A stretch of 64,000 nucleotides of DNA from an uncultured Candidatus Saccharibacteria bacterium (GCA_964600695.1 CAZRKK010000003.1:22914-86913), one strand, 5' to 3'. Positions 5,646 through 21,922 are shown, counted from the stretch's first letter. A program made the numbers and translations. Notes: generated by a model not told the origin, from the letters alone.

Positions 5646-5646
5646 T

Positions 5647-6277: not shown

Positions 6278-6302
6278 GAAACCCCGATTAATTCGGGGTT
6301 TT
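6278..6302 (+). terminator. Rho-independent terminator after the SOD gene
   Basis: aaaccccgattaattcggggtttt followed by a T-rich tract. Confidence 0.5.
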
Positions 6303-6318
6303 AATATTACTAACTACT

Positions 6319-6927
6319 TTAGCCATTCACTGTGGTTGAGAGTGCTTGAAACTTTACAAAGTCTACTAGCTTTCTGGACCTGGACGGATGGCGCAATATC
6401 CGCAAAGCCTTGCCCTCTACTTGTCGGATACGCTCGCGGGTTACACTAAGGACTTGTCCAACTTCTTCCAAAGTATAGCCTCCAAAAAAACGAAGGATGA
6501 TCACTGTTCTCTGTTGGTTATTTAGAGTTTTGAGAAGCTCTTGCACAGCAACCTTTAGCTCAAAATCAAAACTGAGTTCAATGACTTGAATTGGGGAGAC
6601 TAATTCTTTAATCCCACCAGATTTGAGATGGCAAACACAATCGAGGTTATAAGCCTCATCACGCACCTTGCGATCGTTTAAACTTAATTCCTCAACCAGT
6701 TTTGGTTTCGGGAAAAGTTCATCTGGAAATTTACCAGTGAGTTCAAACAACCGCTCCGAAAGTTGTTGTGAAAGCCCTTTTTTAGGTATGTATTTAAAGG
6801 TAATTAATCTAACATAATAAGTTACACTAATCCCTAAAAACTTTGCAGTGTCCTTGTCAGACCAACCACGCTTATTTGCAGCAGCTTCAATATCCTGATG
6901 CCTCTCGAGCTTACTCTTTTTATTCAT
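6319..6927 (-). CDS. Sigma-70 region 4 domain protein with an additional N-terminal HTH
   Basis: The C-terminus QQRTVIILRFFGGYTLEEVGQVLSVTRERIRQVEGKALRILRH is a typical sigma-70 region 4.2. The N-terminus has an HTH-like GWSDKDTAKFLGISVTYYVRL. No recognisable region 2. Confidence 0.6.
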   Translation of the reverse strand: MNKKSKLERHQDIEAAANKRGWSDKDTAKFLGISVTYYVRLITFKYIPKKGLSQQLSERLFELTGKFPDELFPKPKLVEELSLNDRKVRDEAYNLDCVCHLKSGGIKELVSPIQVIELSFDFELKVAVQELLKTLNNQQRTVIILRFFGGYTLEEVGQVLSVTRERIRQVEGKALRILRHPSRSRKLVDFVKFQALSTTVNG

Positions 6928-7034
6928 TTTTGTCCTCCTACGAAAATTTCTAACACTTCACAATACCATAATATATAAATTCCGTCAATATTTGAACTGT
7001 TTTACTGTTGGTTATCAACCCTATCCTAAACAAA

Positions 7035-7065
7035 AACCCCCGAATGGTCGAGGGTTTTGAATAAG
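7035..7065 (-). terminator. Terminator after rplS
   Basis: Minus strand reads aaaccctcgaccattcgggggttttt. Confidence 0.45.
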
Positions 7066-7080
7066 TAGTTTTAGTTTAGA

Positions 7081-7494
7081 CTATTCAGCTTTTTCTGCTG
7101 GTTTATCTTTCTTTACAGACTTCTTGTTCTTACTCATAGCTGTTTTAGACTTTGTTGTATTCTTACGAACACGAGGAGTGTTGTCGCGAAGTTCGCGAAC
7201 ATAGTATAACTTGCTTTGACGAACTAAATCATCTTTTACAACTTCGATCTTAGCAATATTAGGAGAGTGTAATGGGTAGATACGTTCTACACCAACGCCG
7301 TTAGAGATTTTACGAACCATGAAAGTTGCGTTAGCACCAGTTCCACCCTTACGAGCGATAACTAGACCTTCGAAAATCTGAATACGTTCTTTACCACCTT
7401 CTTTAATACGATTATGAACCTTAACAGTGTAACCGGTTTTAAAAGGTGTGTGGTCTTTAAGTTGTTCTGCTTTTAAATTCTTTACGAGTTTCAT
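7081..7494 (-). CDS. rplS: 50S ribosomal protein L19 with a Lys-rich C-terminal tail
   Basis: [68 protein letters not shown]. Confidence 0.9.
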
Positions 7495-7495
7495 A

Positions 7496-8473
7496 TTATA
7501 ATAAATTAACTTTCTTGCTATTAAGCTTTGTGAGTATTTCTTTGAGGTCTTTTGGAAATTCGCTTTCCGCTTCTATCCAAGACTCATCAGGTAATTGAAC
7601 TTCAATCTTTTTTGCATGAAGGAACTGCCTGTTAAGGCCAAGCTTCATGACATTCTTGCCACCATAGAGTTCGTCCCCCACAAGAGGGAAACCGGCGGAA
7701 GAAAAATGAACGCGTATCTGATGCGTTCTACCTGTGTGTAATTTTACAACAACTAGGGTGTATTCGTCAAGGCCGCCCGGTAACTGAAAACTTAGGTGTT
7801 CTAGCACTTCGTACTCCGTTAAAGCCGGCTTTGGTATGCCCATATCGCTCTTTTTTATAGTATGTTTACGGAAATCGTTCTTGCTTTTACCCATTGGTTG
7901 GTCAAAAGTGCCATGTGAATTGGGCATATTACCACGAACTAAGGCAATATACTCCTTTTTTACCTTCCGCTCAAAAAAAGCATCTTTAAGGTGTTCATAC
8001 ATAGGTTGTGTGAGAGCCACCAAAATCACCCCAGAAGTATCTTTATCTAAACGATGAACAATCCCATGGCGTTCTTCCTCTCCCACCAAATGAATATCTT
8101 TAAAGTGATATAACAGAGCTTGAGCTAAAGAATCACCTTTAAAGCCTGCTCCAGGATGAACCACCAAACCAGCTGGTTTATCTATAATTAACAGACCATG
8201 GTTGTTGTATAAAGTCTTGATCGGAATGTTCAACGGTTGAGGCTTCTCGGCTGCAGGACTCGGATTATAAACAATAACACTATCCTTCTTAACAGCGCGG
8301 TGTGGTAAAGTATCTACTTCTCCGTTAACTGTTACTAAACCAATTTCGATATCACGTTGAATTTTACTACGAGACATTTTTGGTAATTTTTGCGCCAAAA
8401 ATTTATCTAAACGAATTTTTAGATCTTCTACTACAAACTTTTCGGTTGTACTACTGTTTTCTGCTTTTGTCAT
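7496..8473 (-). CDS. rluD: RluA-family 23S rRNA pseudouridine synthase (RluD-like) with an N-terminal S4 domain
   Basis: S4 domain: [30 protein letters not shown]. Catalytic motif: [14 protein letters not shown]. Confidence 0.85.
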
Positions 8474-8493
8474 ATCGGTCTTTCTTAACTGAA

Positions 8494-9270
8494 TTATTGA
8501 ATTAAATCTGGACGACGCTTTTTAGTTCGCTTGATAGCTTCTTCGGTACGCCACTTCTGAACATTTAGATGATGACCACTAAGCAAAACCTTGGGGACTC
8601 GCAGTTTTTTACCCGCAACCTCTAATACTTCTGGTTTGGTATATTGAGGATATTCCAACAACACTCCATTTTTTTTAACTGCATCAGAAACAGCAAAACT
8701 TTCGTTATCTGCAGACTCATCTTTCCCAAGCACGCCAGGTATTAACCGTAAGACAGCTTCGCTAATTACTAACGATGGTAGTTCACCACCCATTAGTACA
8801 TAGTCACCAACAGAGAGTTCTTCGTCTACAAATTTACGGACGCGTTCATCAAAGCCTTCATAACGACCAGATACAAATACTAAATTATCATACTTGGCTA
8901 ATCGACGAGCATGAGCTTGATTAAACTGTTTACCTTGAGGAGTTAGTAGAATTACACGTGTCTGCTTAGTGTGCGATGTTTTGTCAGCACTTTTTTCTAA
9001 AGAACTAGCCCGACCACGCGCTTTCGCTATCGCTTTTATAACTACATCCGGACGAAGGACCATCCCCAAACCACCTCCATAAGGACGGTCATCTACAGTC
9101 TTGCGTTTATCTAAACCAAACTTTCTTAAATCTATAGCGGTAAATTTAACCAAGCGAGATTTGATAGCTCGAGCAATGATCCCAAAACTAGTGTATTGGT
9201 TAACAAACTCTGGGAAGAGTGTGATTACGGAAATAGAAATTCGCCTGTTCATATAGTAATAGTAACACAA
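8494..9270 (-). CDS. trmD: tRNA (guanine37-N1)-methyltransferase TrmD (the true start is probably the internal Met at about 9252)
   Basis: ISVITLFPEFV...DDRPYGGGLGMVLRPDVV...VFVSGRYEGFDERV...LSVGDYVLMGGELPSLVISEAVLRLIPGVLG. Confidence 0.9.
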   Translation of the reverse strand: MCYYYYMNRRISISVITLFPEFVNQYTSFGIIARAIKSRLVKFTAIDLRKFGLDKRKTVDDRPYGGGLGMVLRPDVVIKAIAKARGRASSLEKSADKTSHTKQTRVILLTPQGKQFNQAHARRLAKYDNLVFVSGRYEGFDERVRKFVDEELSVGDYVLMGGELPSLVISEAVLRLIPGVLGKDESADNESFAVSDAVKKNGVLLEYPQYTKPEVLEVAGKKLRVPKVLLSGHHLNVQKWRTEEAIKRTKKRRPDLIQ

Positions 9271-9346: not shown

Positions 9347-9700
9347 TTAAAGCTTGAAATCGTCCATGTCTGCTTGTACGTCTTCGTTACGAGACTCTGC
9401 TTGAGAGTCGGAGTGAGAATCACTGCCATGTTCGCGACGAGGACCACGGTGAGAACCTTCTGGTTCGTAAATCTTCAAGTTTACACGAGCTTTGTGCTTA
9501 GCACCAACCACACGTAATAGTGTGCGAAGAGCTTTTGCAGTTTGGCCCATGCGACCGATAACCTGACCCATATCATTTGGGTTGATGTGCAAAGTGATCA
9601 GTACGCCCATTTCGTCTACACTGCGTTCTGTTTTTACATCATCTGGGTTGTCGACCAAAGCTTTGACTACGAATTCAACAAATGCTTGATCATTTTCCAT
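9347..9700 (-). CDS. khpA: KH-domain RNA-binding protein (KhpA/YlqC, UPF0109 family) with a charged C-terminal extension
   Basis: MENDQAFVEFVVKALVDNPDDVKTE...GVLITLHINPNDMGQVIGRMGQTAKALRTLLRVVG. The longer ORF starting at 9793 would begin 6 nt after a terminator T-run, so the Met at 9700 is preferred. Confidence 0.7.
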   Translation of the reverse strand: MENDQAFVEFVVKALVDNPDDVKTERSVDEMGVLITLHINPNDMGQVIGRMGQTAKALRTLLRVVGAKHKARVNLKIYEPEGSHRGPRREHGSDSHSDSQAESRNEDVQADMDDFKL

Positions 9701-9808
9701 GGTATCTATATAGTATTCTGCGATAGGAAAGTTGGCTTCGACCGTGCCATCTATTGCACTGATAGAATAACAAAAATTAGTACCATGTGTCAATATTTTT
9801 CAATTAAA

Positions 9809-9859: not shown

Positions 9860-12178
9860 TTATTGAGCAGTTTCGTTACGAACTGGCTTACCAGTGTCAG
9901 AGAATAAGTATGGAGGAGTAGTAACTCTTTTTGGTCCTGGTGGAGTCATGATACTATCTTCGTTAGTTTTAATTTCTGCAGTGTTCCAGAATCTATACAA
10001 GAAGCTTGTTGCACCAACAGGTGCTTTGAGCTTAGCAGAAATCTTTAAGGTACAAGGCGCGTTAGGAGCTACGTCACTTACATTGTATGGACCAGATGTT
10101 CCAGCACCTGAAGAGTTACAACCAACTGTGCCGTCTAATTTAACTTGATCTAAATTATGAGCATCAATTTCTGTGACTGTTACCCCTGTGATTGGACCAA
10201 AACCTGTATTACAAATATTAATATTGAAGTAAACTTTACTACCGGTTTTAAATATTCCACTACTAGGAAGCCCAAACGGATCAGATATGCTATTACATCT
10301 TAGAGCAGTCGAACTATTAGTATTATTGTCTACTTTGTATAAGTCCTTATCGGAACTACCAAGGTCGGGAATACACGGTTCAAGGACTCCTAAGACTACA
10401 TTTGAAATCGAAGAAGGAGAACTTCCATTAAATGCTCTTACCATATACCAATAACCGGCTCCAGTTCTTGGGCTAGGGTCTTGAAAACTTGTAACTGAAG
10501 GACCCAACAAAGGAGAGATTGCTGTATACTCTGGCCATGATCCTGATGGATCAGGACCACCACTTGAAGTCCATCGATAGACTTTGAAGTTTGTTGCAGT
10601 AGGTAAACCTCCGCCAGGGCTCCAATTTACGTTAACCTCACCACAAGGATTGGTAATCCAAACTATTGGAGCAGAAGGTCCAACAGGTGCAGAAACCCTT
10701 ACCCAAATTTCATCTGTGCCAGATAAAGTTGTTGGATCTGTATCATCACAAACTGCAGAAAATAAAGTATCAGATGTTAATGGTCCAGACGTGCGACTAG
10801 CAGTTAAGCGATTGTCCCACACCACACCATCTTTAAAAACAGTGCAGACTGTAGAATTTCTAGGATCCCATCTAATTATTGATTCGCCACCATACGGTAT
10901 AGTACAATCTACTGGGCTATTAGTGTTACAATAAATATCAACAGATGGCGATAAACCTGCTCCACCATCAACTCTAAAATTTATAGGCGGGCAAAACTTT
11001 GGTGTTCCAACTGCAGGTGTAGCCTTAATAATAATTTGGTGATTCCCTGCGGTGGTATTAATATCTGTCGAAATATCTACTTTGGCAAACTTATCGTAAG
11101 GACTAAGAAGAGGGTTTGGGTTCATTGCTGTATTAGCAATTGCTACCGAAGGAGGATTACCACCTGGTGGAGTAATTGATTCCAAACTAAAAGTAACAGG
11201 TTGTACAAATCCATTAACAGGATTTATTCGAAAAGTAGAGGAACCTCCAAAACCTCTAGTAACATTATGAGTTCCACCACTCATCAGTTCACAGCTAAAG
11301 GTGGCTCCAGGCGGGACAGCCACATTAATTATTACCGAACGAGTCGGACTATTAGATTGATACCCCTGACAAGTAATTGTATAAGTAAATCTACCAGGGT
11401 TCAAAAATGGACCAACACTTTGATTGCCTCCACCGGGACCGTTTTTAGGACCAACCCAAGTAGAATCAGAATTATTATTCGCAGCAACACAAGAATTACC
11501 AGGATTAACAAACTCTGTGTTCCAGTTAATATTAGCATTATCATTTACCTCAAGATTGATTTCGTTTTGACCATTAATTAGCAATGAGACATCTGGGTTA
11601 CCGTAAATTGCTAAGTTAGTATTAGTTGTTCTGGTGATGTAAGTTGGTCCGCTAGGCTCATCTACAATTAAATTTACATAAATTGCCGCACTTCCTCCAC
11701 CTATAGTATTTGGTCCAGGGGTGCAAGAATTTTGATGTGTAGAAACCATAATGAACCCATCTGCTTGAATAGGTGGGGCTGTAAATATATTAGACATTCC
11801 TGGTGTAGGATTTGGGGCGTATGAATGCTGGTGATGAGAATATCCATCATCTGTTTGATAAGTTCTACCAGATGTAAAAGACGCCACACTAGAATCGTGT
11901 GTATACCTATAAACATGACCAGCAGTCAACTCAAGGTCAAAAAAGTTTTCTCCTGGGAACTGCTCTCCATTGTCTGCGGCATAAGAAGCAACTACGACAT
12001 CAGGTTCAGGGGTTGTATCAACTATATCTAAATAAGTCGATAATGAATGACAGATTTCGTTAGCTTGAGCCTTCTTTGCATCAAAAACAACACTAGGAAT
12101 TATAGTGGCAGCGATTAATGCAAAAAATAATAGTAAATTTACAATCGATTGAATATTTGATTTGAATTTTTGTTTCAT
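9860..12178 (-). CDS. Large secreted cell-surface protein (772 aa), Gly/Pro/Ser/Thr/Asn-rich, with an Fn3-like segment and a C-terminal domain shared with the 1069-aa paralog
   Basis: N-terminal signal/anchor MKQKFKSNIQSIVNLLLFFALIAATIIP. The C-terminal ~170 aa (DKDLYKVDNNTNSSTALRCN...GSKVYFNINICNTG...FLYRFWNTA...TPPYLFS) is paralogous to the C-terminus of the 16223-19432 product. Confidence 0.7.
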   Translation of the reverse strand: MKQKFKSNIQSIVNLLLFFALIAATIIPSVVFDAKKAQANEICHSLSTYLDIVDTTPEPDVVVASYAADNGEQFPGENFFDLELTAGHVYRYTHDSSVASFTSGRTYQTDDGYSHHQHSYAPNPTPGMSNIFTAPPIQADGFIMVSTHQNSCTPGPNTIGGGSAAIYVNLIVDEPSGPTYITRTTNTNLAIYGNPDVSLLINGQNEINLEVNDNANINWNTEFVNPGNSCVAANNNSDSTWVGPKNGPGGGNQSVGPFLNPGRFTYTITCQGYQSNSPTRSVIINVAVPPGATFSCELMSGGTHNVTRGFGGSSTFRINPVNGFVQPVTFSLESITPPGGNPPSVAIANTAMNPNPLLSPYDKFAKVDISTDINTTAGNHQIIIKATPAVGTPKFCPPINFRVDGGAGLSPSVDIYCNTNSPVDCTIPYGGESIIRWDPRNSTVCTVFKDGVVWDNRLTASRTSGPLTSDTLFSAVCDDTDPTTLSGTDEIWVRVSAPVGPSAPIVWITNPCGEVNVNWSPGGGLPTATNFKVYRWTSSGGPDPSGSWPEYTAISPLLGPSVTSFQDPSPRTGAGYWYMVRAFNGSSPSSISNVVLGVLEPCIPDLGSSDKDLYKVDNNTNSSTALRCNSISDPFGLPSSGIFKTGSKVYFNINICNTGFGPITGVTVTEIDAHNLDQVKLDGTVGCNSSGAGTSGPYNVSDVAPNAPCTLKISAKLKAPVGATSFLYRFWNTAEIKTNEDSIMTPPGPKRVTTPPYLFSDTGKPVRNETAQ

Positions 12179-12272: not shown

Positions 12273-13685
12273 TTAGGGTAGAGTTATGACTATCCCGCTT
12301 CCGCCAGTAATATTTGTTATAGAAACATGACTCACCACCACACCAGCAACAGAATAACTTTGCAACACTAATGGTGCATTGTTGGTAGTTGTATCAAATG
12401 GAGTTGTATCTACAATGTATGGAATTGCATCGAAATCAGCCAATTGATCTGTACCAACAATTATCTTTACCCCATCTCGGTATGCTCGAAGTTGTTGATC
12501 ATAAATGTCAAACAATGGGTAATCCCTTCGAACTTCGATATACTCACTACTACCTAGTAGTGAACCACTAAGTGGAATAAAACAAAACTGACAAGACATC
12601 AATCTTTTAGTAGCCGGACTAGAAAATACCGACGGACTATAGACATTGTAACGACCAGAAAATTGCGGTTGTTTAAATGGTTGGTTGTGCCAACCCAACC
12701 TACGTCGCTGGTATACATTAGGAAGCATTTGCCCGGTGCCCATAAAACAAGATTTATCACCATATTCAAAGATGGCGCAACTGCTTGGAATGTTATTTTG
12801 GTCAGTGCATTGGTAAACTTTTGAATGTTGCAATCCGAGTGTATGCCCCAACTCATGAGTTGCCATCTCGTTTGCCCACGTGGCAGTCATGTCATTCTTG
12901 TTAGTAATAACCCACTCACGCGAGTTCATCATGCCGATATTACCAAATGTTGCAATGCTCTGAGTACTACAACCTGCCAGATTATTAAACGTTAGAATCG
13001 TGGCATTGTAGTTGTTAGGTTCTATGCTCTGGGCACGCAAACCATCATCAATCAAAGTTAGCCATTCACTAGTTTGCTGTTGTTGGCAATTAGTAATCTG
13101 CGAGTTAATGGTCACAAATGCAACATCACCTTCAATTCGGTTTGTATAACCAACAATTTTTAGGCGACCTGAAGATGCAACATCCATAAATACTCTTGCA
13201 GATTTAGGGTTATGGAATACTGGGGCAAGGGCTTGCGCCGCGGTAATATAGTTAGAATCTACCGGGGGACTACCAGGTTGTTGAACAGAAACTACCACTG
13301 AAATAACTTTATAATCACCTTGTGAAGTGGGTGGCAACGTCATATCAACATAAAGAGGAGAATCTAAAGTTGCTATACTTTTAGGTTCAACTTTTAAAAC
13401 TCTTAGCCCATCTTTTTGGAGTTTGAATCTTCCATCTAGAGAAACTAAGCGATTAACATATTTTCCCCAATCAACGGAACTATCCAGTTCTAAAAATGAA
13501 CCATTGACCAACAACTTAAAGGAGTAATCAGCACTGACCCCAATATCTTCAGAGACAAATGCCTTAACCACTCCTTGATAGTTTTTGCTCAAATTCTTGG
13601 TGAAATCCTTAGTTTGTCCAAAAACAAACAGAGGAAAACTCCACAAAATCAACATTACCAAAACTACATAACATTTCTTATACAT
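12273..13685 (-). CDS. Secreted zinc metalloprotease, metzincin-type (HEXXHXXGXXH)
   Basis: Signal peptide MYKKCYVVLVMLILWSFPLFVFG. Extended zinc-binding motif HELGHTLGLQH (HExxHxxGxxH), with a downstream SCFMG as a possible Met-turn. Confidence 0.75.
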   Translation of the reverse strand: MYKKCYVVLVMLILWSFPLFVFGQTKDFTKNLSKNYQGVVKAFVSEDIGVSADYSFKLLVNGSFLELDSSVDWGKYVNRLVSLDGRFKLQKDGLRVLKVEPKSIATLDSPLYVDMTLPPTSQGDYKVISVVVSVQQPGSPPVDSNYITAAQALAPVFHNPKSARVFMDVASSGRLKIVGYTNRIEGDVAFVTINSQITNCQQQQTSEWLTLIDDGLRAQSIEPNNYNATILTFNNLAGCSTQSIATFGNIGMMNSREWVITNKNDMTATWANEMATHELGHTLGLQHSKVYQCTDQNNIPSSCAIFEYGDKSCFMGTGQMLPNVYQRRRLGWHNQPFKQPQFSGRYNVYSPSVFSSPATKRLMSCQFCFIPLSGSLLGSSEYIEVRRDYPLFDIYDQQLRAYRDGVKIIVGTDQLADFDAIPYIVDTTPFDTTTNNAPLVLQSYSVAGVVVSHVSITNITGGSGIVITLP

Positions 13686-13785
13686 ATTACTTTCCTCCTA
13701 GGATTTCTTTTACACTCTGATTATATAATAAAAAAGCCAATAATAGAACCTATTATTGGCTTTTTGTCAAGCAGTTATAAAATCT

Positions 13786-14982
13786 CTAATTTACCTGACC
13801 TCTACCTCTGACAACTATACCTTTTAATATAACCCCAGGTGGGCTTGAAGGACCAGAAAGTTCTTGTTCGGTGACAGAACTACTATTGTTCGCGGTTAAA
13901 CTAATTGATGAGCCACAATTCACTGTTGGCCCATTAGGAGGAGAGCCTGGTGGTGAGAAACTCATCGTCACTCCAGTAAATTCACTGACAGCTTCTAATT
14001 GAGTTATTGGACCAGTAAAACCACCAGTACAAACAGCTACAACTGTAAAGGTTTTTGTTTGGCCAAGTAAAATCCTGTTTGGTGTTGTCTGTGAAGGAGG
14101 CACGCCTACCCCTTCTGGCCCTGGAGTAACCTGTAATTCAAAGTTTGGAGTGGAAGGATTTACGATTAATTGTGCTGTCGTACATTGTCTAGTCACGCCA
14201 CCACCTGTTCCTGTGAAAGTTAAAGTATATGTTCCGGGAGTAGTACCACTAGGACCACTCGAGGTAGTTACGTTTGCCTGAGTAATAGCAGGAGGACTTT
14301 GACCGATACTTGGCAAAGATATTACTGGTGGATTGGCTACAGGTGGAGAAATACTAGCTGTGTAGGTTACTGGACTATTAAAACCATTGGTTGGAAAAGA
14401 TTCAATATCATATATAAAACTACTTCCCTGATTTAGGGTGTGAGTTGGTGGTAAAACACTACAAGTAAAACTAGTGCCGGGATTAAAGTAAACCTCCATA
14501 CCAGCACCAGCACTTTCATCCATATTACGACAAGATGAATCTGCCATAATAACTACTTCGGAAGCACCTCTTGTAAAATAAAACGGAGGCGGTCCCATCT
14601 GACCTTGAGGATCGCCAGGATTCCATGAAAGTTGAGTTTGACCAGCGTCATTAATAGTAGCACCGGAAATAGTCATATTTCCTGCTTGCTCATAAGGCCC
14701 TGTATCACCTTGTGCACCTGACATGAAACTAACATCAATAATGTCACCAGGATTAGTTGGTACATCCCCGCCGCCACCCCAATGGTTACCATCTGTATCT
14801 CCATAGGCCCAAAATTCAGTTGTCACATTAGTGGCTCTATTTGTAAACCACCCAGTAATTTCAACCGCACACCACCCAGCTGCCGCAGCTTTGGGTGTAT
14901 AAACTATACTTGTGCCAAAAAACGTTGAAAGTAATAGCAACGTACTAACGCTAAGTCTTAAGATTGAGTTATAAAATTTCAT
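13786..14982 (-). CDS. Secreted surface protein (398 aa), a paralog of the large surface proteins
   Basis: Signal peptide MKFYNSILRLSVSTLLLLSTFFGTS...AAAAGW. Its segment YTLTFTGTGGGVTRQCTTAQLIVNP matches YTLTFTATGGGVTRTCQATLTVSP in the 1069-aa protein. Confidence 0.65.
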   Translation of the reverse strand: MKFYNSILRLSVSTLLLLSTFFGTSIVYTPKAAAAGWCAVEITGWFTNRATNVTTEFWAYGDTDGNHWGGGGDVPTNPGDIIDVSFMSGAQGDTGPYEQAGNMTISGATINDAGQTQLSWNPGDPQGQMGPPPFYFTRGASEVVIMADSSCRNMDESAGAGMEVYFNPGTSFTCSVLPPTHTLNQGSSFIYDIESFPTNGFNSPVTYTASISPPVANPPVISLPSIGQSPPAITQANVTTSSGPSGTTPGTYTLTFTGTGGGVTRQCTTAQLIVNPSTPNFELQVTPGPEGVGVPPSQTTPNRILLGQTKTFTVVAVCTGGFTGPITQLEAVSEFTGVTMSFSPPGSPPNGPTVNCGSSISLTANNSSSVTEQELSGPSSPPGVILKGIVVRGRGQVN

Positions 14983-15002
14983 ACCAATTATAAATTAATA
15001 AG

Positions 15003-15521
15003 CTACAGCTCTATATAGGTAATAGTAACTGTTTTCTTTTTACTGGTTTTATTTTCATCTACAGCAATAATCAATTTTTGATCCTCTTTGCTACCGGTTA
15101 CTTTCATAAATGTTGGATCATTGTTAGAAACAACAGTTTTCCAACCATCTTTTTTTAGAAAGTTAGTGTACAAATCAATATTTTCTACTAAGGATTTTTT
15201 GGTTATAAAACTTCGGGTAGCCTGCAGGCGACCATCAGGAGTAGCAGCATTGTAATTTTCAGTAATTTCCACACCTTCTTCTAACGGAATATTATTAGGA
15301 AATTTTTCTGGGAACTTACTAAAATCAATATTAGTTTTTTTGACCTGACTAGTCCTTTTAATTTGATCCGGTGATAACTGGTTTGATGATTTATTTTTTT
15401 GCCAGGAATATACTTGAGTTGCTCCATAAATAAGCAATAATGATAGTGCTATCACTACAAGAATTTTAACTGGCCGTGAATTGATTAAACCACCCTTTAA
15501 TTGAGGGTCTAGATTTTTCAT
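15003..15521 (-). CDS. Small N-terminally membrane-anchored protein, paralog family member 1 of 4 (unknown function)
   Basis: One TM anchor (ILVVIALSLLLIYGA) plus a ~110-aa domain with the family consensus FPxNIPLEEG...DGRxQATRxF.TKKSL.EN..LYT.FLKK.GW. Confidence 0.65.
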   Translation of the reverse strand: MKNLDPQLKGGLINSRPVKILVVIALSLLLIYGATQVYSWQKNKSSNQLSPDQIKRTSQVKKTNIDFSKFPEKFPNNIPLEEGVEITENYNAATPDGRLQATRSFITKKSLVENIDLYTNFLKKDGWKTVVSNNDPTFMKVTGSKEDQKLIIAVDENKTSKKKTVTITYIEL

Positions 15522-15577
15522 TTTAGTTTCTTAATGTGCTCATTTTTTATACTATACCAGATTTAGCTCAAAGCCCC
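15522..15577 (-). promoter_or_regulatory. Conserved upstream element (probable promoter/leader) shared with 16106-16160
   Basis: About 80% nucleotide identity over ~55 nt immediately 5' of the two paralog start codons. The minus strand contains TATAGTATAAAA, a -10-like sequence. Confidence 0.45.
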
Positions 15578-15607
15578 AAGCTAGAGTCGCGAGTAACCTG
15601 CTTTTAT

Positions 15608-16105
15608 TTACTTATTCTCTGTATAACTAATTGTTACAATCTTAACCTGATTAATTTTATTTTCTTCGATGGTTACTTGGATAGCTTTCTTTAATAAATT
15701 TCCCATTACCATCTTATAAGTAGGATCGTCTGTTGTGGCCTTAATTTCCCAACCGTTTTTTTTCATGAAATCTGTGTACAAAGCATAGTTTTCTGCTAGT
15801 GATTTTTTGGTCTCAAATTGACGTGTTGCCTGAAACTGGCCCTCAGGTGTTTCTGAGTTATAATTTTGAATAACTTCAGCACCTTCTTCTAATGGGATGT
15901 TACTTGGAAATTTTTCTGGTAACTTACTGATCTCTACATCGGTCTTTTCTACATTAACCAACTGAGGGACCTCTGCTACTTTTTTTGTATTCATTAATTT
16001 ATATGCTACAAACAACAAACACAAGATTACAACAACCATCAGTAAGAGTTTAAACAACTGATTAAAATTAACCGATGAGTCAGGTTGGCTATTTTTATTT
16101 TCCAT
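15608..16105 (-). CDS. Small N-terminally membrane-anchored protein, paralog family member 2 of 4
   Basis: LPEKFPSNIPLEEGAEVIQNYNSETPEGQFQATRQFETKKSLAENYALYTDFMKKNGW, closely similar to the 15003-15521 product. Confidence 0.65.
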   Translation of the reverse strand: MENKNSQPDSSVNFNQLFKLLLMVVVILCLLFVAYKLMNTKKVAEVPQLVNVEKTDVEISKLPEKFPSNIPLEEGAEVIQNYNSETPEGQFQATRQFETKKSLAENYALYTDFMKKNGWEIKATTDDPTYKMVMGNLLKKAIQVTIEENKINQVKIVTISYTENK

Positions 16106-16160
16106 TTTAGTTTCTTAATACACTTATTTTCTATACTATAGCAGATTTAAGCCCAAATTG
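16106..16160 (-). promoter_or_regulatory. Second copy of the conserved upstream element
   Basis: tttagtttcttaatacacttattttctatactatagcagatttaagccc here, versus tttagtttcttaatgtgctcattttttatactataccagatttagctc at 15522. Confidence 0.45.
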
Positions 16161-16222
16161 CAAAGTTTAAATAAAATAACTGCACGAAAGTGCAGTTATT
16201 TTGGTCACATCTTGATTAAACC

Positions 16223-19200
16223 CTACGGAGCGCTTTCTCCTCTGGATGGAACACCTGTCGCACTAGTAGAATACAAATAAGGTGGTGTTGCGACTGTCTT
16301 TGGATTCAACTCGTTAGAATAAATTATAGCTTGATTCCAAAATCTATGTAAGTAACCAGTAGATGCAGAAGGGGTAGCTATTGTGGCTTCCAAATTTACA
16401 TAACAAACCGGTATAGGTTCTTTCTGGTTTGTCCAACCTTCTATGTCGCCAACAGTAATAAAGCCTTTACCACTATCTTCAATCTTACATAAGTTTTTTT
16501 CTGGTATCACCGGAGTGATATCAATCAAATTATTACTACCGGACAACTCGACTCTAATACCAGTTAAAACCTTACTACCTGAGTTACAAACATTGATAGA
16601 GAAATAAACTTTACTTCCGGCTCTAAACACTCCCTGGTTAGGAAGTACGAAAACATCTGATTTATCATTACAAGCCGTAGATGAACCGTTGATATTATCA
16701 ACCTTCGTCAAATCTTGATCGGACAAATCTATGTTTGGTGCACAGCTTGTAGGGATGACTGGATTAGCAGCTGCATAATCAGAATATAATCCATCTAAAT
16801 AAGACCTCACAGAATAATAATTTTCGAACTCACTATAGAAAGGTTCTGTATGAATAAATGAGAACTTTCCATCACCAAGACCCGTATCTATTATTGGCCC
16901 ACTAACTAGTTCCTGAGTAGCTGACTTCAATGATCCTCCTGTAGGATATGATAGACTATAAACTTCGTAGTGAGCTGGTGTTGGTCCAGATTTAGGTCTG
17001 TCCCAAGTTACTTCGACAGTTCCACAGGTCTGGCCTGCCTTAGCCTGTACATTTGTTGGATCTTGAGGAGCAACACCACTAATAATTAAAGTAACATAAC
17101 ATGTTAAAGTTTGAGGAGTACCCTGAAAACCACCTGGATCTGAAGCCCAATCGATTGGATACTTAATCTCCGGTACAGCACTCAAGGTTAAGATATGAGT
17201 GCCTGCTGTGGTATTACCTGAAGTTGAGACAATTACACTGGACTGTCCGGGAGTACCCTCTTGAGGATTATTAGAATAACTAAAAGTAGGTGGATTTGCT
17301 GGCTGGCCATTATCAAAGCTTGGAACAATATTAATATTGTAATAGTTTATTAAAGGAAGAGTCATCGAAACATCAACTGTAATCACCCCTGGAGCACCAC
17401 CCTTTGTTAACATCAAAGGCGAAGGAGCACAAGCCATTGTATCTACATTAATAAAAACTGAATCTTTTAATGAGGTTGGTTTACCCATGACATTTGCATC
17501 ACATCTAATGCTAAACTCAGTAGTCTCGGTAACTTCCACATCCATCTCTGGAACTTTAGCATAAGTTACATCACCAATGTTTGGTTGGATACTTATTGCA
17601 TCACATAAATTTGAAGTCCAAGAAATTTTTGTGGTTTCACCACTTAACACCCGGCAAGGACCATCATTAGGGGTATCTTTAGAATTAGAAATACATTTAA
17701 TATCAATACTTGGACTACCAACCACTTCGATATTTACAGTAACAGTGTCTACTATAGTTGGTGCTTCGCCAAAAGCTGGATCACAACTGATTATGAAAGT
17801 TGTATCTCCCGAGATAGTAACATCTAAACCTGGGTTAGTATTATTACTAGCCACTAATCCAATACCATTATCTATGGAAACTGGTCCACAATATTCTGAG
17901 GTCCAAGTTAAGTTTGTTTTTGCTCCGCTTACCACAGTACATGGACCATCACTGGCAATTCCATCTGTACCTGTACATTTAATATCAACGGTACGTGTGC
18001 CGGAAGGAACATTTATAGTCACAGTATCACTTACACTGCCGCCAGGGCCCGTACATAATAATGTATAGATAGTTGTTGTGAATAACGCACCAGTAGAAAC
18101 GCCGACTACTTCACTTGTACCTGGACTATAACCAGAAATTGTTGGAGACAAAGTACAACTTTGAAGGTTAGTGGTAGAGAAATATAACAATGCGTATCCA
18201 CCAAAGGCCACGTCACAAGGTCCATCAACACCAGAGACATCACCATCACCTTGACATTGTAAATCAGCAGTAGGTGTTGCTGGAGCCCCTACATTAACAA
18301 TTACTTCATCATACGCGGTACTGCCATATTGAGCAGTACAGGTGAGTCTAAATTGATAAGTTGTGTTTGTTTGTAGTCCTGTAAGTGCTTGAGTTTCCTG
18401 ACCGGAGTTTGCAGTATTTTTAGCTCCAGACCAAGAACCATACGACCCCTGAGTCATACTCGCCGAACAAGAAGTGGCATCTTGTGTGACCCATTCTAAT
18501 TCCCCAGTTGAACCATTAGAAGGTGTTGGAGTAGTTGGTCCATCTGAGTTATTAAATTTTAAGTTAACTACTGGTATAAGCGGTGAAACCGTTAATGTTG
18601 CTTGGCAAGTTCTAGTTACCCCACCACCGGTTGCTGTAAAAGTTAAGGTATATGGATCAGTAGAATCTAAATTAGCGGTAGGGACTATGACATTGTTCAA
18701 ATAACTATTACCTGAATTCAGTTGAACATCTGCAATATCTGTTAATCCATTGTCTGGCGCGATCGTGGTTCCAACAGTAATGTCGGAACTAAAATTTGTG
18801 AGGTTAGATGCTAGCACAGGGAAATTAGCATTTTGCCCACGAGTAACACTTTGGTTTACACCACAAGAAAAGTCAAAACTTGGTGTACCAGTTCCGCTAT
18901 AAGTTACATAGGCATACCATAAAATTTCTGTGGTATTACCGCAAGCTTGAGCTGTGACTGTTATCCATAATGCGTAGCCTGTAGCAGTAATAGTCGGAAC
19001 ATCATAACTAGAACTATAATCAGCTGGTCCAACCTTATTACCACCTGTAACAGTTTCATCAAAAACAGTTATACCATCTACTTGTATCTGACTATGAACT
19101 GTTCCCTCAGCATCACCAGGTCCAGCATTTCCAGTCATATCAATGTGGAAATTTGAAAGCTCGTTAGCATATTGAGTTGTGGCACCACCGTTATTATTGA

Positions 19201-19432
19201 CTCCATTAACACCATCTGCAGATTGATTTATAGGACCACTCGGAGAATCATAGGAAACACTAATATGAGCACGGGTGTCTGCTAACTCAGGATAAACAGA
19301 ACAAAATTCCGCACCTTGAGCTTTAACCTCAGGAGTTATTAGAGGAGCTGTAGTAAAAAACATCCCCAAAACCATAACCAATCCAAGAGTGGCCGATAAA
19401 TAAATGTTAGTTTTTGCTATTAATCTCTTCAT
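16223..19432 (-). CDS. Very large secreted cell-surface protein (1069 aa) with internal tandem Ig-like repeats, an Fn3-like segment and the shared C-terminal domain
   Basis: Signal/anchor MKRLIAKTNIYLSATLGLVMVLGMFFTTAPL. Two adjacent ~95-aa repeats (DIKCTGTDGIASDGPCTVVSGAKTNLTWTSEYC... and DIKCISNSKDTPNDGPCRVLSGETTKISWTSNLC...). The C-terminus ...GSKVYFSINVCNSG...YLHRFWNQA...TPPYLYS is paralogous to the 772-aa protein. Confidence 0.7.
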   Translation of the reverse strand: MKRLIAKTNIYLSATLGLVMVLGMFFTTAPLITPEVKAQGAEFCSVYPELADTRAHISVSYDSPSGPINQSADGVNGVNNNGGATTQYANELSNFHIDMTGNAGPGDAEGTVHSQIQVDGITVFDETVTGGNKVGPADYSSSYDVPTITATGYALWITVTAQACGNTTEILWYAYVTYSGTGTPSFDFSCGVNQSVTRGQNANFPVLASNLTNFSSDITVGTTIAPDNGLTDIADVQLNSGNSYLNNVIVPTANLDSTDPYTLTFTATGGGVTRTCQATLTVSPLIPVVNLKFNNSDGPTTPTPSNGSTGELEWVTQDATSCSASMTQGSYGSWSGAKNTANSGQETQALTGLQTNTTYQFRLTCTAQYGSTAYDEVIVNVGAPATPTADLQCQGDGDVSGVDGPCDVAFGGYALLYFSTTNLQSCTLSPTISGYSPGTSEVVGVSTGALFTTTIYTLLCTGPGGSVSDTVTINVPSGTRTVDIKCTGTDGIASDGPCTVVSGAKTNLTWTSEYCGPVSIDNGIGLVASNNTNPGLDVTISGDTTFIISCDPAFGEAPTIVDTVTVNIEVVGSPSIDIKCISNSKDTPNDGPCRVLSGETTKISWTSNLCDAISIQPNIGDVTYAKVPEMDVEVTETTEFSIRCDANVMGKPTSLKDSVFINVDTMACAPSPLMLTKGGAPGVITVDVSMTLPLINYYNINIVPSFDNGQPANPPTFSYSNNPQEGTPGQSSVIVSTSGNTTAGTHILTLSAVPEIKYPIDWASDPGGFQGTPQTLTCYVTLIISGVAPQDPTNVQAKAGQTCGTVEVTWDRPKSGPTPAHYEVYSLSYPTGGSLKSATQELVSGPIIDTGLGDGKFSFIHTEPFYSEFENYYSVRSYLDGLYSDYAAANPVIPTSCAPNIDLSDQDLTKVDNINGSSTACNDKSDVFVLPNQGVFRAGSKVYFSINVCNSGSKVLTGIRVELSGSNNLIDITPVIPEKNLCKIEDSGKGFITVGDIEGWTNQKEPIPVCYVNLEATIATPSASTGYLHRFWNQAIIYSNELNPKTVATPPYLYSTSATGVPSRGESAP

Positions 19433-19448
19433 GTAATTCGTTAATGAA

Positions 19449-19949
19449 TTATTTTGTGGACTTTAGGTTTTGAATAACACTAACCTCTAGAATTGATCCT
19501 TTACCTGCAGGATCCTCAGTAGCGACAATCATTAAAATATTGTTGTCTTTAGAAAATAGTGCTGGAGACTTTATTGCCTCTGTATTATTGCGAACCCAAC
19601 CTAAATTTTCAAAAAAGCTAGCATATTTTACTAATGCTTTTTGAGCTGAAAGAGCAGAAGTAAATTTTCGAGTAGACTGAGTACGCCCATCATTCGTGGT
19701 GGATTCGGAGTTTTGCAAAATTTTCCCACCAGATTCACTAGGAAGATTGTCTGGGAATCCTTTTAGAGTCTGAGTTTTATTAACATCTTTAGTTTGAACC
19801 TCAAATTTTGGAGTAGTTTGATCTACTTTAGTAGTGAAGTAGTTTTTTGACCATAAAAACCAAAAAAATCCTGTTAGTATAAGTAACACGATTAAGGCAC
19901 CCACTAATAATTGCTTGTGATTAGTTTTTGGGGATACTGGATTATCCAT
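19449..19949 (-). CDS. Small N-terminally membrane-anchored protein, paralog family member 3 of 4
   Basis: TM anchor LLVGALIVLLILTGFFWFLW, then KGFPDNLPSESGGKILQNSESTTNDGRTQSTRKF...FFENLGW. Confidence 0.6.
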   Translation of the reverse strand: MDNPVSPKTNHKQLLVGALIVLLILTGFFWFLWSKNYFTTKVDQTTPKFEVQTKDVNKTQTLKGFPDNLPSESGGKILQNSESTTNDGRTQSTRKFTSALSAQKALVKYASFFENLGWVRNNTEAIKSPALFSKDNNILMIVATEDPAGKGSILEVSVIQNLKSTK

Positions 19950-20034
19950 TTGAATTTATTTTTGTTTCGATTCCGAAAATTTACTTTTTAATTATAGCAT
20001 AAAAAGATTTTTTTTGCAATAGAACTTTTAAGTT

Positions 20035-20520
20035 TTACTTTGTGAACTCTGTTAAGGTCATTGTAATAACATTAACTTTGTTATTTGGATCTAGAGCTGC
20101 AGAGATTTGTAACAGTTGGTTATCTTTTTTACCAGCAACCATTTTCACATTAGACTGATCTAAGCTATTATTTATTGTCCAACCATTGTCTTTTAAATAC
20201 TTGGTGTAGAGGGTAATATTCTGAGCTAAAGTTTTCTTACTTTCAAATTCGCGAGTAGCATTAAATCTACCGTCTCCTTCAATGGCATTAAAATTACTAG
20301 TCACTACAGCACCTACCTCTGTTGGTAAGTTGACTGGAAACTTGTCGGGCAAGGTACCTTTATCGACTTGGGTAATTTGTACAGGCTTCACCTTTTCGAC
20401 TTTGTTAATTTTTGAATTTGGCTGGAGAGGATAATTTGATAACTGAATTGCTACAAACAGTAAAGCTAGCAATGCAGCCACCATAACTACCATTTTAAAC
20501 ACAGGGTTATTTAGTTCCAT
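20035..20520 (-). CDS. Small N-terminally membrane-anchored protein, paralog family member 4 of 4
   Basis: DKFPVNLPTEVGAVVTSNFNAIEGDGRFNATREFESKKTLAQNITLYTKYLKDNGW. Confidence 0.65.
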   Translation of the reverse strand: MELNNPVFKMVVMVAALLALLFVAIQLSNYPLQPNSKINKVEKVKPVQITQVDKGTLPDKFPVNLPTEVGAVVTSNFNAIEGDGRFNATREFESKKTLAQNITLYTKYLKDNGWTINNSLDQSNVKMVAGKKDNQLLQISAALDPNNKVNVITMTLTEFTK

Positions 20521-20568
20521 TTTAGTTTTGTTAATTTTATTATTTTTTTTTAAACTTCAAATTTAAAT

Positions 20569-21300
20569 TTAGTATTGAGCTCTAGTCTTTGTACGCTTTA
20601 CTTGTAAATAGACTTTTGCGGGACTTAAAGTAGGTTCAGTTTTATTTCTACTATTACTCGAAGGTTTATTAACCAACTGTGAATACTCTGACCACCCTCC
20701 ACCATTTCTTGCCGAAGGTGTGTACTCAACCTTACCTTTACCTACGGAAATTCCAACTCTTGCATCCGAGATTAAGACACCTGCAGGCATTGGTCTAGTT
20801 TGATAATGTAACCATAAGCAATCTGGTATTTTAGTTCTACTACGGGGTGTGGAGTTCTTGCTAGCCCCGCCGCCTAAGCTAGCCCATGATGTCCATTGAA
20901 CAACTGTCTGTTCACCTGTACAATCAGACTTTTTTTCTGCCATGCTGATTCCAATTCTAAAATCTTGTTGATAGATAGCACCATTCAAGGGAGCAGAACC
21001 AACATTACCAGGATCAAAATAGATACTCGCACAGTCTGGATCCTTTGCGTTTTCATCTGTACCATAACTTGAACCACCAGGAACCGCTAAAGCGGATTCT
21101 ACTTCTTGATCTGTGCAATAATGGTCCATTAACGCAACCTTAAAACCTGTTGGAGCTAAAGCAGATGGAGTTGATGTATTCCCAGAGGAAGCATCACTAT
21201 ATTTTGGAGCTAATCTTTTTCCCTGGAACGCGTATGCAGCAGTTCCGACTAATGCAACACCAGCTAATACAAGCACTGGTAATATTAATTTTGGTTTCAT
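20569..21300 (-). CDS. Secreted hypothetical protein (243 aa) containing Cys
   Basis: Signal peptide MKPKLILPVLVLAGVALVGTAAYA. Six Cys. No recognisable domain. Confidence 0.55.
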   Translation of the reverse strand: MKPKLILPVLVLAGVALVGTAAYAFQGKRLAPKYSDASSGNTSTPSALAPTGFKVALMDHYCTDQEVESALAVPGGSSYGTDENAKDPDCASIYFDPGNVGSAPLNGAIYQQDFRIGISMAEKKSDCTGEQTVVQWTSWASLGGGASKNSTPRSRTKIPDCLWLHYQTRPMPAGVLISDARVGISVGKGKVEYTPSARNGGGWSEYSQLVNKPSSNSRNKTEPTLSPAKVYLQVKRTKTRAQY

Positions 21301-21371: not shown

Positions 21372-21400
21372 ATTAAAGAAAAACCCTACTCACAGGAAGA
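21372..21400 (-). terminator. Rho-independent terminator immediately downstream of rpsP
   Basis: aaccctactc-acaggaa-gagtagggtt; the minus strand is followed by tttttc. Confidence 0.5.
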
Positions 21401-21415
21401 GTAGGGTTTAAAAAT

Positions 21416-21922
21416 TTATTCAGCTTTTTCTTCTGCCGATGTTTCGGGAGTTGCTTCTGGAGCGGCTTCTTCTGGCTTGGCTTCTTCAGCAGGAACTTCT
21501 TCTACTGCAACAACCATTTCTGGTTCTTCTGCAGGAGTTGCTTCTGCTGGTGTAGCTTCATCAGCTGGAGTTTCGGTAACAGCTTCATCGGCAGTAGCAG
21601 ATTCAGCTGCAGGTGCTTCTGGTTTAGCTTCTTCAGCTACAACTTCTTTTTTAGGAATAGTGAAAGATTTAGTTTTATCTGCTTTAAGGATTTCCTTAGT
21701 GACAAATAAGTTATGGACTGTAGCAGAGAGTTCAACATGCTGGTCGTTCATCCAGTAATTCAAACGGTCGTTGCTACGAATTCCTAATTCTTTAGTATGA
21801 GGATTGTAAGATCCTAAGATCTCTACAAACTTCTTTTGGTTAGCAGCGGTTTTTTGAGCTAACACTACTTTGTATTGAGCAGTGTTGCGTTTACCACCAC
21901 GTTGTAAACGAATAGTTAACAT
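21416..21922 (-). CDS. rpsP: 30S ribosomal protein S16 with an Ala/Glu/Pro-rich low-complexity C-terminal extension
   Basis: MLTIRLQRGGKRNTAQYKVVLAQKTAANQKKFVEILGSYNPH...NDRLNYWMNDQHVELSATV, followed by ~80 aa of EAKPEAPAAE-type repeats. Confidence 0.9.
   Translation of the reverse strand: MLTIRLQRGGKRNTAQYKVVLAQKTAANQKKFVEILGSYNPHTKELGIRSNDRLNYWMNDQHVELSATVHNLFVTKEILKADKTKSFTIPKKEVVAEEAKPEAPAAESATADEAVTETPADEATPAEATPAEEPEMVVAVEEVPAEEAKPEEAAPEATPETSAEEKAE

Follow-up and report, generated by a model that had tools for sequence, protein, structure and literature searches.

A conserved gene module linking small membrane-anchored Mog1p/PsbP-like proteins with large Ig-like surface proteins in Candidatus Saccharibacteria

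We analyzed a gene cluster of a Candidatus Saccharibacteria MAG within a 64,000-nt window (the whole stretch of DNA under study), where it forms an insertion with rpsP on one side and the KH/trmD/rplS genes on the other. The ORF listing recovered all seven open reading frames of the initial annotation between 13786 and 21300, at the coordinates and sizes given there, and all of them are encoded on the minus strand. As transcribed, the order is p243, s161, s166, L1069, s165, s172, L398. Because all seven genes share the minus strand, the small genes precede each large gene; the large-small-small order proposed initially had been read in the wrong direction and becomes small-small-large. The spacing is short, with 16 nt between the s166 and L1069 genes and 20 nt between the s172 and L398 genes. 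The conserved cluster runs beyond position 13786, as a secreted metzincin and a third large paralog also belong to it. The features are, in the direction of transcription:

21416–21922, minus strand: rpsP (S16), conserved upstream boundary, followed by a terminator-like hairpin at 21381–21409
20569–21300, minus strand: p243, 243 aa, secreted, 4 Cys, first gene after rpsP (ORF)
20035–20520, minus strand: s161, small protein of type A, 161 aa, TM helix and Mog1p/PsbP-like domain (alignment; type A clade in NJ tree)
19449–19949, minus strand: s166, small protein of type B, 166 aa, ending 16 nt before the 1069-aa gene (alignment)
16223–19432, minus strand: L1069, 1069 aa, secreted, 26 Cys, multi-Ig-like with a CLIPPER-like C-terminal domain, tail ...TPPYLYSTSATGVPSRGESAP
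15608–16105, minus strand: s165, small protein of type A', 165 aa (alignment, NJ tree)
15003–15521, minus strand: s172, small protein of type A', 172 aa, ending 20 nt before the 398-aa gene (AlphaFold2-modelled)
13786–14982, minus strand: L398, 398 aa, secreted, 6 Cys, tail ...VVRGRGQVN
13731–13765, minus strand: terminator-like hairpin after the L398 gene, 16-bp stem and T run
12273–13685, minus strand: M470, secreted metzincin-type zinc protease with the motif HELGHTLGLQH (Pfam)
9860–12178, minus strand: L772, third large surface protein, secreted, 16 Cys, C-terminal CLIPPER/DUF11 domain, tail ...TPPYLFSDTGKPVRNETAQ
9347–9793, minus strand: KH-domain (KhpA-like) gene, conserved downstream boundary, followed by trmD, an rluD-like gene and rplS

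The boundary at the KH side was also found in the related loci L004, L011 and L014. Terminator-like matches in the region were not enriched over shuffled sequences (11 found vs 9.3 expected), so the hairpin at 13731–13765 is at most a plausible operon end. The promoter scan likewise gave no enrichment over shuffles, and the Rfam scan returned tRNAs only. The first gene product, p243, carries an N-terminal hydrophobic signal-like segment and had no match in Pfam, NCBIfam or PADLOC; its orthologs hold the first position in L009, L011 and L021 as well. M470 exceeded the Pfam cutoffs for Peptidase_M11 (26.0 bits, cutoff 21), Peptidase_M10 (24.7, cutoff 24) and Reprolysin_5 (27.5, cutoff 27), and its translation contains the HExxHxxGxxH zinc-binding motif. 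Metzincin homologs are part of the module in L004, L021 and L022, while L014, L015 and L023 have a subtilisin (S8) in its stead and the protease is missing from the module in L008 and L011.

The four small proteins form one family, as had been proposed. They align over their full length with 18 invariant columns and a mean column identity of 54%, and pairwise BLASTP comparisons gave E values from 3.2e-14 to 1.8e-43, far past chance. When the six reading frames were searched with a profile, exactly four copies were present in the window. From a short N-terminus, the architecture runs through a single TM helix and a polar linker to a domain of ~110 aa, which bears out the anchor and domain originally described, and the consensus FPxNIPLEEG...DGRxQATRxF..KKSL..N..LYT.FLKK.GW agrees with the alignment. 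Searches against Pfam, NCBIfam, PADLOC and PDB sequences yielded noise only, with no Pfam match at E ≤ 1 for any of the four in a set apparently searched without the PF27226 model. To this extent the family is unrecognised, as first stated, but its homologs are tagged PF27226 ('AF_1845') and its fold is known. The precomputed tag is found on 12/22 homolog clusters, many of them marked weak or faint, and on neighbours in L005, L007, L008, L014, L015 and L023; a protein of L001 that is identical to s161 bears it with the grade 'weak'. We found no mention of PF27226/AF_1845 in the literature. Grouped at 50% identity, the family comprises about 2,170 clusters altogether.

The AlphaFold2 model of s172 consists of the TM helix, a linker helix and an alpha/beta domain. 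This domain shows the Mog1p/PsbP-like fold, an antiparallel beta-sheet packed on a helix, with significant structural similarity, and its closest folds are DcrB, LpqN and MTC28. Conserved P71, P75, P79, E81, N89, Q100, R103, Y118 and W127 make up a surface of the small proteins. Functions are diverse within the Mog1p/PsbP-like fold, whose members range over lipid binders, chaperones and sensors. DcrB, an inner-membrane lipoprotein of Salmonella and E. coli (DUF1795), and the N-terminal domain of PA1624 have this fold in common with the small proteins, but sequence identity is 9%, there is no Pfam match to DUF1795 or DUF4892 and none to DcrB/DUF1795 in NCBIfam, and the tether of DcrB is a lipid instead of a TM helix. 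Moreover, each locus has 2–4 small-protein paralogs in linkage with large secreted proteins, whereas no such linkage has been described for DcrB or PA1624. The mycobacterial envelope lipoproteins LpqN and MTC28 and the PknH sensor domain lack sequence similarity to the small proteins and differ from them in anchor, gene context and partners (MmpL transporters or lipids). The Eag/SciW effector chaperones (DUF1795) are cytoplasmic, without a TM helix, and bind the TM helices of effectors; unlike the small proteins, they serve a T6SS, which the module does not have. RimM, which usually occupies this place in the operon, was rejected as an identity for the small proteins since it is cytoplasmic and without a TM helix.

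A lipobox was absent from 173/173 family members examined. One member, P0125, has a cleavable-type Sec signal, and the more distant relative in L019 has a lipoprotein-type signal. Applied to the TM-anchored members, the positive-inside rule left the topology undecided; we infer that the domain faces outward. In P0106, two family domains are naturally fused into a single protein, which fits a joint action of two small proteins.

The large proteins have signal-like N-termini followed by a Cys-bracketed domain and Ig-like domains, and the long forms add a CLIPPER-type domain and, behind it, a C-terminal tail that is short, conserved and not hydrophobic. Their Cys counts are almost all even (6–30), with a single exception of 19. 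None of 17 large proteins showed LPxT[GAS] in the last 80 aa or a hydrophobic segment past residue 60 (maximum 19-residue hydropathy ≤1.6). There was no match to an NCBIfam sorting domain (-CTERM), no Pfam match at E ≤ 1 to SLH, CWB2 or a similar cell-wall-binding domain, and no sortase gene within the window. Lipoproteins were ruled out by the absence of a lipobox. No recognised type of membrane or cell-wall anchor was detected. Signal-peptide cleavage was judged by eye; uncleaved signals would make the large proteins self-anchoring. PDB contained no sequence relatives.

Within this group, L1069 gave weak fn3/PKD/Ig Pfam matches and no direct match to PF01345, and its residues 773–1068 are 33% identical over 305 aa to the C-terminus of L772, in which residues 644–738 match PF01345 (28.3 bits, cutoff 24.6, E 2.3e-6). 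AlphaFold2 predicted an Ig-like beta-sandwich for the C-terminal 206 aa of L772 (core pLDDT 70–85, mean 57.6), with the tail as low-confidence coil. Foldseek matched this model to generic Ig-like domains, among them the pilins BcpA and SpaD; 9IFR was absent from the best 50 matches to this moderate-quality model. By eye, candidate isopeptide positions in the C-terminal domain are K (DLYK), E/D (VTEID) and N (FWNTA). L398 shares the Cys-bracketed domain and one Ig-like domain with its larger paralogs and differs in its tail; orthologs with a like tail type are present in L005 (407 aa), L011 (398 aa) and L022 (407 aa). For the L1069 counterpart in L009, decay to a pseudogene was considered and discarded, its breaks being N-runs in the assembly. 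CLIPPER proteins have been described as signal-peptide-bearing surface proteins with multiple Ig-like domains (bioRxiv 10.1101/2025.04.25.650565). The large proteins resemble such CLIPPER (DUF11, PF01345)/CnaA-like adhesins in signal peptides and multi-Ig-like make-up, but carry one C-terminal CLIPPER-type domain instead of a tandem stalk, and they differ from known CLIPPER adhesins and pilins by a distinctive conserved C-terminal tail and the lack of LPxTG, OmpA or any other known anchor.

Comparison across lineages showed a close linkage of both gene families. A small gene is the direct upstream neighbour of a large secreted gene, or is separated from it by a single protease gene, in 12/13 informative lineages; as large secreted we counted any downstream gene whose product has at least 380 aa and a hydrophobic segment at its N-terminus, a description that applies to 5/53 genes (about 9%) in the window. 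The co-occurrence that the initial annotation proposed to look for is therefore found in other genomes, although the count overstates independence because the supporting loci are mostly of common descent (same synteny). It includes one non-rpsP context, L018: here a family member comes after pilB-pilT-pilC-pilin-pilD and three minor pilins, with a secreted protein of more than 518 aa encoded behind it. The small proteins are not a housekeeping family. The initially assumed fixed 1:2 ratio of large to small proteins did not hold: with S for small and L for large, the order is S-L in L012/L013 (4-nt overlap) and L022, S-protease-S-L in L004 and L021, S-S-S-L-L-L-L in L005 and S-S-protease-L in L014, L015 and L023. 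In L016, the small gene is followed directly by KH/trmD and the downstream large gene is absent; in the window, the L772 gene is not directly preceded by small genes. In L008, the entire S-S-L unit is duplicated again.

As a further trend, the subtype of the small protein tracks the C-terminal tail type of the neighbouring large protein. The two modules in the window, described initially as one module repeated, are not simple duplicates: types A and B (s161, s166) precede the CLIPPER-ending L1069, whereas two A'-type proteins (s165, s172) precede the shorter 398-aa type. For members of the type B clade of the NJ tree, the next gene downstream always encodes a large protein of 870 aa or more that carries a TPPYLFS-type tail (TPPYLFS-x3-7-[VIT]P-x-R-x-E-[TSV]-[AS]-P), which is also true of L021 as an independent check. 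Type A' precedes the 398-type large protein with its ...G-x-G-Q-[IV]-N tail; both are present in the window, L011, L005 and L022 and both are absent from L004 and L008. The subtype/tail rule was upheld in two loci outside those defining the types.

Between the window and L011, the flanks are 86–94% identical, while identity is 48–56% for the small and 33–40% for the large proteins. The module evolves far faster than its flanks, as expected of exposed, co-evolving surface components. In the model strain S. epibionticum, Tn-seq tables place KH directly after rpsP, and the Mog1p/PsbP-like proteins SEML1_0245 and SEML1_0542 are present (PMC10633639). As this species has no insertion at the rpsP-KH site, the small genes are not a core operon component and the existing Tn-seq data do not bear on the module.

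The explanation that we favour for these observations, and one that may well be right although we hold it tentatively, is that the small proteins serve outside the cytoplasm as dedicated tethers or escorts of Ig-like surface proteins that are rich in disulfides and have no anchor, in a lineage-specific Saccharibacteria module. A different explanation, which we consider rather unlikely, is that they are general envelope-biogenesis factors (DcrB- or LpqN-like, acting on lipids, lipoproteins or the cell wall) in a highly expressed rpsP operon, where large genes gather as variable cargo without specific partnership. The nearest folds (DcrB, LpqN, MTC28) and the large size of the family would suit such a role, as would the post-rpsP position, which is kept where the large protein and the protease are weakly or not related (S8 protease and a 1322-aa protein in L014/L015/L023), and the direct adjacency of the small gene to KH/trmD in L016. 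However, general factors fit poorly with the subtype/tail correlation, the renewed S-S-L duplication in L008, the tight coupling to the large gene, the 2–4 paralogs per locus, the linkage in the other genomic context of L018 and an evolution much faster than that of housekeeping genes; the uninterrupted rpsP-KH site of S. epibionticum also speaks against them.

Paired bitopic paralogs with TM helix, linker helix and alpha/beta domain recall, in addition, the tandem single-pass PilN/PilO or GspL/GspM proteins, and such a pair could form the platform for a fibre or pilus built from or tipped with the large CLIPPER-domain proteins. The type IV pilus cluster next to the L018 relative and the resemblance of the large-protein C-terminal domain to the Gram-positive pilin domains BcpA and SpaD point in this direction, as do the CLIPPER domains known from fibrillar adhesin stalks (bioRxiv 10.1101/2025.04.25.650565). 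Nevertheless, PilN/PilO have a ferredoxin-like fold and the small proteins do not; the combination of a ferredoxin-like periplasmic domain with pilM/pilB/pilC was not found for them, and no pilus genes adjoin the module in Saccharibacteria loci. We consider such a platform improbable. Of the partner roles proposed initially (chaperone/escort, anchor, immunity), the last is the least supported, and it appears highly improbable that the small proteins act as immunity or inhibitor proteins against the large proteins as secreted effectors, or against the co-encoded protease used on the host bacterium. Pfam and NCBIfam matches of the large proteins are confined to Ig-like and CLIPPER domains, with no recognisable toxin or enzyme domain, and PADLOC returned no defence or toxin-immunity match for any of the nine module proteins. 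The small genes also lie upstream of the large genes, not downstream, and their number is not tied to the protease, which L008 and L011 lack and which may be of either class where small genes occur.

According to the tether or escort model, the large proteins would be exported via Sec as disulfide-rich, Ig-like proteins without an anchor, and the bitopic small proteins, with their Mog1p/PsbP-like (DcrB/PA1624-like) domain outside and close to the membrane, would interact with them physically and either keep them on the cell surface or escort their folding and assembly. Type B may serve the TPPYLFS-tail class and type A' the 398-aa class, with type A as a putative common second subunit, possibly in heterodimers, while the co-encoded secreted protease (metzincin or subtilisin) might process the large proteins. 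A more specific version, speculative and on balance unlikely, takes A and B as a heterodimeric membrane receptor for TPPYLFS tails and A' as the reader of the G-x-G-Q-[IV]-N tail, providing sortase-independent anchoring or sorting of fast-diversifying host-binding adhesins and using the protease for maturation or release. If true, this would be a previously undescribed sortase-independent surface anchoring and sorting system of Saccharibacteria/Patescibacteria.

Attachment to host bacteria is the way of life of Saccharibacteria and other Patescibacteria. To our knowledge, little beyond type IV pili and a T4SS explains how they assemble proteins at their surface and keep them there, and most of the recognised anchoring systems are not known from their envelopes. 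The literature on Saccharibacteria S-layer and surface proteins contained no description of the module that we could find. The module probably helps to display proteins that these parasites use at the cell surface. If the proposed role is true, fast-evolving large surface proteins are paired with dedicated membrane partners and a protease, a function would be assigned to a family that so far has none and numbers about 2,000 clusters, and a new C-terminal recognition motif would come into view. The module would also supply candidates for the determinants of host attachment and host range.

All open reading frames of the initial annotation were recovered in the ORF listing with identical coordinates and lengths. 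However, every gene lies on the minus strand and is transcribed small-small-large, so that the repeated unit is small-small-large and the large-small-small order first proposed is backwards. Small (s), large (L) and other proteins are named by their length in amino acids.

Genes of the module and its borders in the window, in transcriptional order (ORF listing).
21922-21416, minus strand: rpsP (ribosomal protein S16)
21300-20569, minus strand: p243, secreted protein
20520-20035, minus strand: s161, small anchored protein
19949-19449, minus strand: s166, small anchored protein
19432-16223, minus strand: L1069, large surface protein
16105-15608, minus strand: s165, small anchored protein
15521-15003, minus strand: s172, small anchored protein
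14982-13786, minus strand: L398, large surface protein
13685-12273, minus strand: M470, metzincin
12178-9860, minus strand: L772, large surface protein
9793-9347, minus strand: KH-domain gene, then trmD, pseudouridine synthase and rplS

In the window, each large gene preceded by a small pair starts 16 or 20 nt past the end of the second small gene. Strong terminator-like hairpins lie 3' of rpsP and L398, with hairpin matches not enriched relative to shuffles. S16 itself (21416-21922, minus strand) has 168 aa, including a C-terminal extension of about 80 residues rich in Glu, Ala, Pro and Thr; its counterparts in related loci have 131 to 168 aa.

The module is flanked by FtsH, RNase III, SMC and S16 on one side and by KH, TrmD, RluD-like and L19 proteins on the other, a synteny kept in all relatives with enough sequence. 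Related loci (with handles such as L004) come from MAGs of uncultured Candidatus Saccharibacteria. Elsewhere, the window holds ordinary core genes of a chromosome, among them recA, ftsK, infB and RNase Y. At 28983-34392 (minus strand), seven tandem paralogs (294, 148, 151, 171, 291, 314 and 326 aa), each with a C-terminal PF18895 T4SS_pilin domain, resemble the essential predicted pilin series of the Saccharibacteria T4SS cluster (PMC10633639). In S. epibionticum ML1, a cultivated strain, the KH gene directly follows rpsP (PMC10633639 Table S1) and the order is rnc-rpsP-KH-trmD without insertion (Tables S1/S2), which identifies the module as a lineage-specific insertion. Consequently, the published Tn-seq data are silent on it. 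ML1 encodes two other Mog1p/PsbP-like proteins, the essential SEML1_0245, adjoining a histidine kinase and a response regulator, and the non-essential SEML1_0542 (PMC10633639).

As initially proposed, the four small proteins are clearly paralogous, with pairwise BLASTP E-values of 3.2e-14 to 1.8e-43 and 18 invariant alignment columns; a profile search found no fifth copy in the window. Each has the predicted N-terminal anchor and domain: after a short N-terminus comes a single strongly hydrophobic helix, then a polar linker rich in Lys, Thr, Gln and Pro, and finally a Cys-free domain of about 110 aa. An AlphaFold2 model built from a 25-sequence alignment (mean pLDDT 83.6; 10-residue block means of 90-98 across residues 61-170) gives the topology beta-beta-alpha-beta-beta-beta-beta, with the motif LPxKFPxxxPxE in a well-ordered, Pro-rich stretch before the first strand. 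As modelled, this is a Mog1p/PsbP-like fold, which in bacteria typically occurs in membrane-tethered extracytoplasmic proteins (PMC7716261).

Local Pfam, NCBIfam, PADLOC and PDB sequence searches gave no match, and a literature search found nothing on PF27226 ("AF_1845"). Homologs nevertheless carry this tag in precomputed annotation, often weakly, so the family, initially reported as unrecognized, is already catalogued and not wholly unknown. An exhaustive profile search returned 2,174 clusters (50% identity) at E<=1e-3, of which 136 reach E<=1e-30; the best 150 of the 2,174 are almost all 150-180 aa long. The positive-inside rule did not settle topology. An extracytoplasmic position of the domain is favoured by two relatives: P0125 (242 aa), with a cleavable-type Sec signal (...PAFA/SE) and a Lys/Ala-rich helical linker before the family domain, and a more distant member (L019, 1776-2270) with a lipoprotein-type signal on a GC-rich, apparently non-CPR contig. 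In P0106 (279 aa), one TM helix is naturally fused to two tandem family domains. A signal peptidase II (LspA) gene at 38360-38857 (minus strand) indicates that the organism makes lipoproteins; despite this, the small proteins have a TM anchor instead of a lipobox.

L1069, L772 and L398 share a signal-like N-terminus ending, by eye, in AxA-type motifs (VKA/QG, AQA/NE and AAA/AG). Their first Cys lies 2-5 residues further on, with a positional partner about 110-120 residues later (C44/C164, C43/C152 and C38/C151), and they carry Ig-like domains, with weak matches to fn3, PKD and Ig. Cys counts of the large proteins in the window and relatives are even (6-30), except for one with 19. The L772 C-terminus scores above the Pfam cutoff for CLIPPER/DUF11. 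Domains of this type, found in fibrillar adhesins, are CnaA-like and often contain an isopeptide bond (bioRxiv 10.1101/2025.04.25.650565). The last 300 residues of L1069 are 33% identical to L772. A moderate AF2 model of this C-terminal region, with a beta-sandwich core at pLDDT 70-85, matched Ig-like domains in Foldseek, including the pilins BcpA and SpaD.

None of the 17 large proteins (window and relatives) has an LPxTG motif or a hydrophobic segment beyond residue 60, and sorting-signal models gave no match. Instead, CLIPPER-ending proteins share a polar C-terminal tail, TPPYL[FY]S-x3-7-[VIT]P-x-R-x-E-[TSV]-[AS]-P, at 9860-9925 (L772) and 16223-16290 (L1069) and in L004, L005, L008, L011, L014, L022 and the database protein P0174. 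This non-hydrophobic tail matches no known sorting signal; in the model, YLFS forms the last strand and the rest is low-confidence coil. The 398-aa class has another conserved tail, ...h-x-V-x-G-x-G-Q-[IV]-N.

A neighbour-joining tree divides the small proteins into three groups. Type B (s166 and relatives) always sits directly upstream of a protein with the TPPYLFS tail. Type A (s161 and its relatives) usually comes first in the small run, and subclade A' (s165, s172 and relatives) precedes proteins of the 398-aa class. A' and this class of large protein are jointly present in the window, L011, L005 and L022 and jointly absent in L004 and L008. The rule holds in two loci outside the type definition: L021_8084 is type B and adjoins a large gene, and L022_2626 is A' and adjoins a protein of 407 aa whose tail is GKGQIN. 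Thus, the two window modules are two specialized pairs and not, as first described, one module repeated.

Gene orders in the window and related loci (S, small; L, large; M, metzincin; S8, subtilisin).
Window, L009: p243-S-S-L-S-S-L-M-L
L011: p252-S-S-L-S-S-L-L
L008: S-S-L-S-S-L
L007: S-S-L...
L005, L010: S-S-S-L-L-L-L
L004: S-M-S-L
L021: p234-S-M-S-L
L022: L-S-L-M-L
L012, L013: S-L, 4-nt overlap
L014, L015, L023: S-S-S8-L
L018: type IV pilus genes-S-L
L016: S-KH, no large gene downstream

The expected co-occurrence with large surface proteins was conserved: in 12 of 13 informative lineages, downstream of the small run lies a gene for a protein that has an N-terminal hydrophobic segment and at least 380 aa (L007 counted with a 331-aa gene cut off by the contig end), in some with one protease gene between. 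Such genes make up 5/53 in the window outside the module, a comparison whose nominal P value overstates independence because the lineages are related. The supposedly fixed 1:2 stoichiometry did not hold, two small per large gene being common but variable. The secreted protease within the module is a metzincin in some lineages (window 12273-13685) and a subtilisin (Peptidase_S8) in others (L014 6084-7541; L015 6644-8110; L023 1298-2674), a non-homologous replacement at the same position. In L018 (Ga0265292_1003826, 38-8897), a small-family member (E 8e-37) follows pilB-pilT-pilC-pilin-prepilin peptidase and three minor-pilin-like genes and precedes a secreted protein of >518 aa, which repeats the order of small before large gene beside type IV pilus genes.

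Identity to L011 falls in a gradient from flanking housekeeping proteins (86-94%) through p243 (62%) and small proteins (48-56%) to large proteins (33-40%). In a comparison with the close relative L009, DNA divergence is highest in the L1069 region (~80% vs 87-92% in flanks). The L009 ortholog is not a pseudogene; its apparent fragments reflect assembly gaps (100-base N-runs at 6720-6819, 9022-9121 and 17137-17236). The gene at 6319-6927 (minus strand) encodes a protein of 202 aa that contains Sigma70_r4 and HTH domains; its product shares just 34% identity with the protein at the corresponding position in L011 and 78.5% with the one in L009, against 89-98% for its neighbours.

The evidence best supports a reading of the small proteins as dedicated partners that face outward from the membrane and would tether or escort anchor-less secreted surface proteins. 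Subtype specificity may be read from the C-terminal tails of the large proteins, and maturation may be handled by the co-encoded protease. Gene content, paralogy, fold, linkage, the match between subtype and tail and the gradient in rate are established by the analysis; topology, physical binding and function are inferred. The partnership first suggested is plausible and the linkage is conserved, although not at a fixed stoichiometry. It is rather unlikely that the small proteins represent a general DcrB/LpqN-like envelope factor that only happens to share a hot spot with surface genes; that they form the assembly platform of a fibre, in the manner of PilN/PilO, appears improbable, and a role as immunity or inhibitor proteins more improbable still.

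The fold, the domain family and CLIPPER adhesins are already known. We found no description in the literature of the conserved module as such, an insertion in the rpsP-trmD region of Saccharibacteria that combines pairs of TM-anchored paralogs of Mog1p/PsbP-like fold with a secreted protease and with Ig-like surface proteins bearing the C-terminal tails. We place this module within a known kind of system, accessory-protein-assisted surface display.
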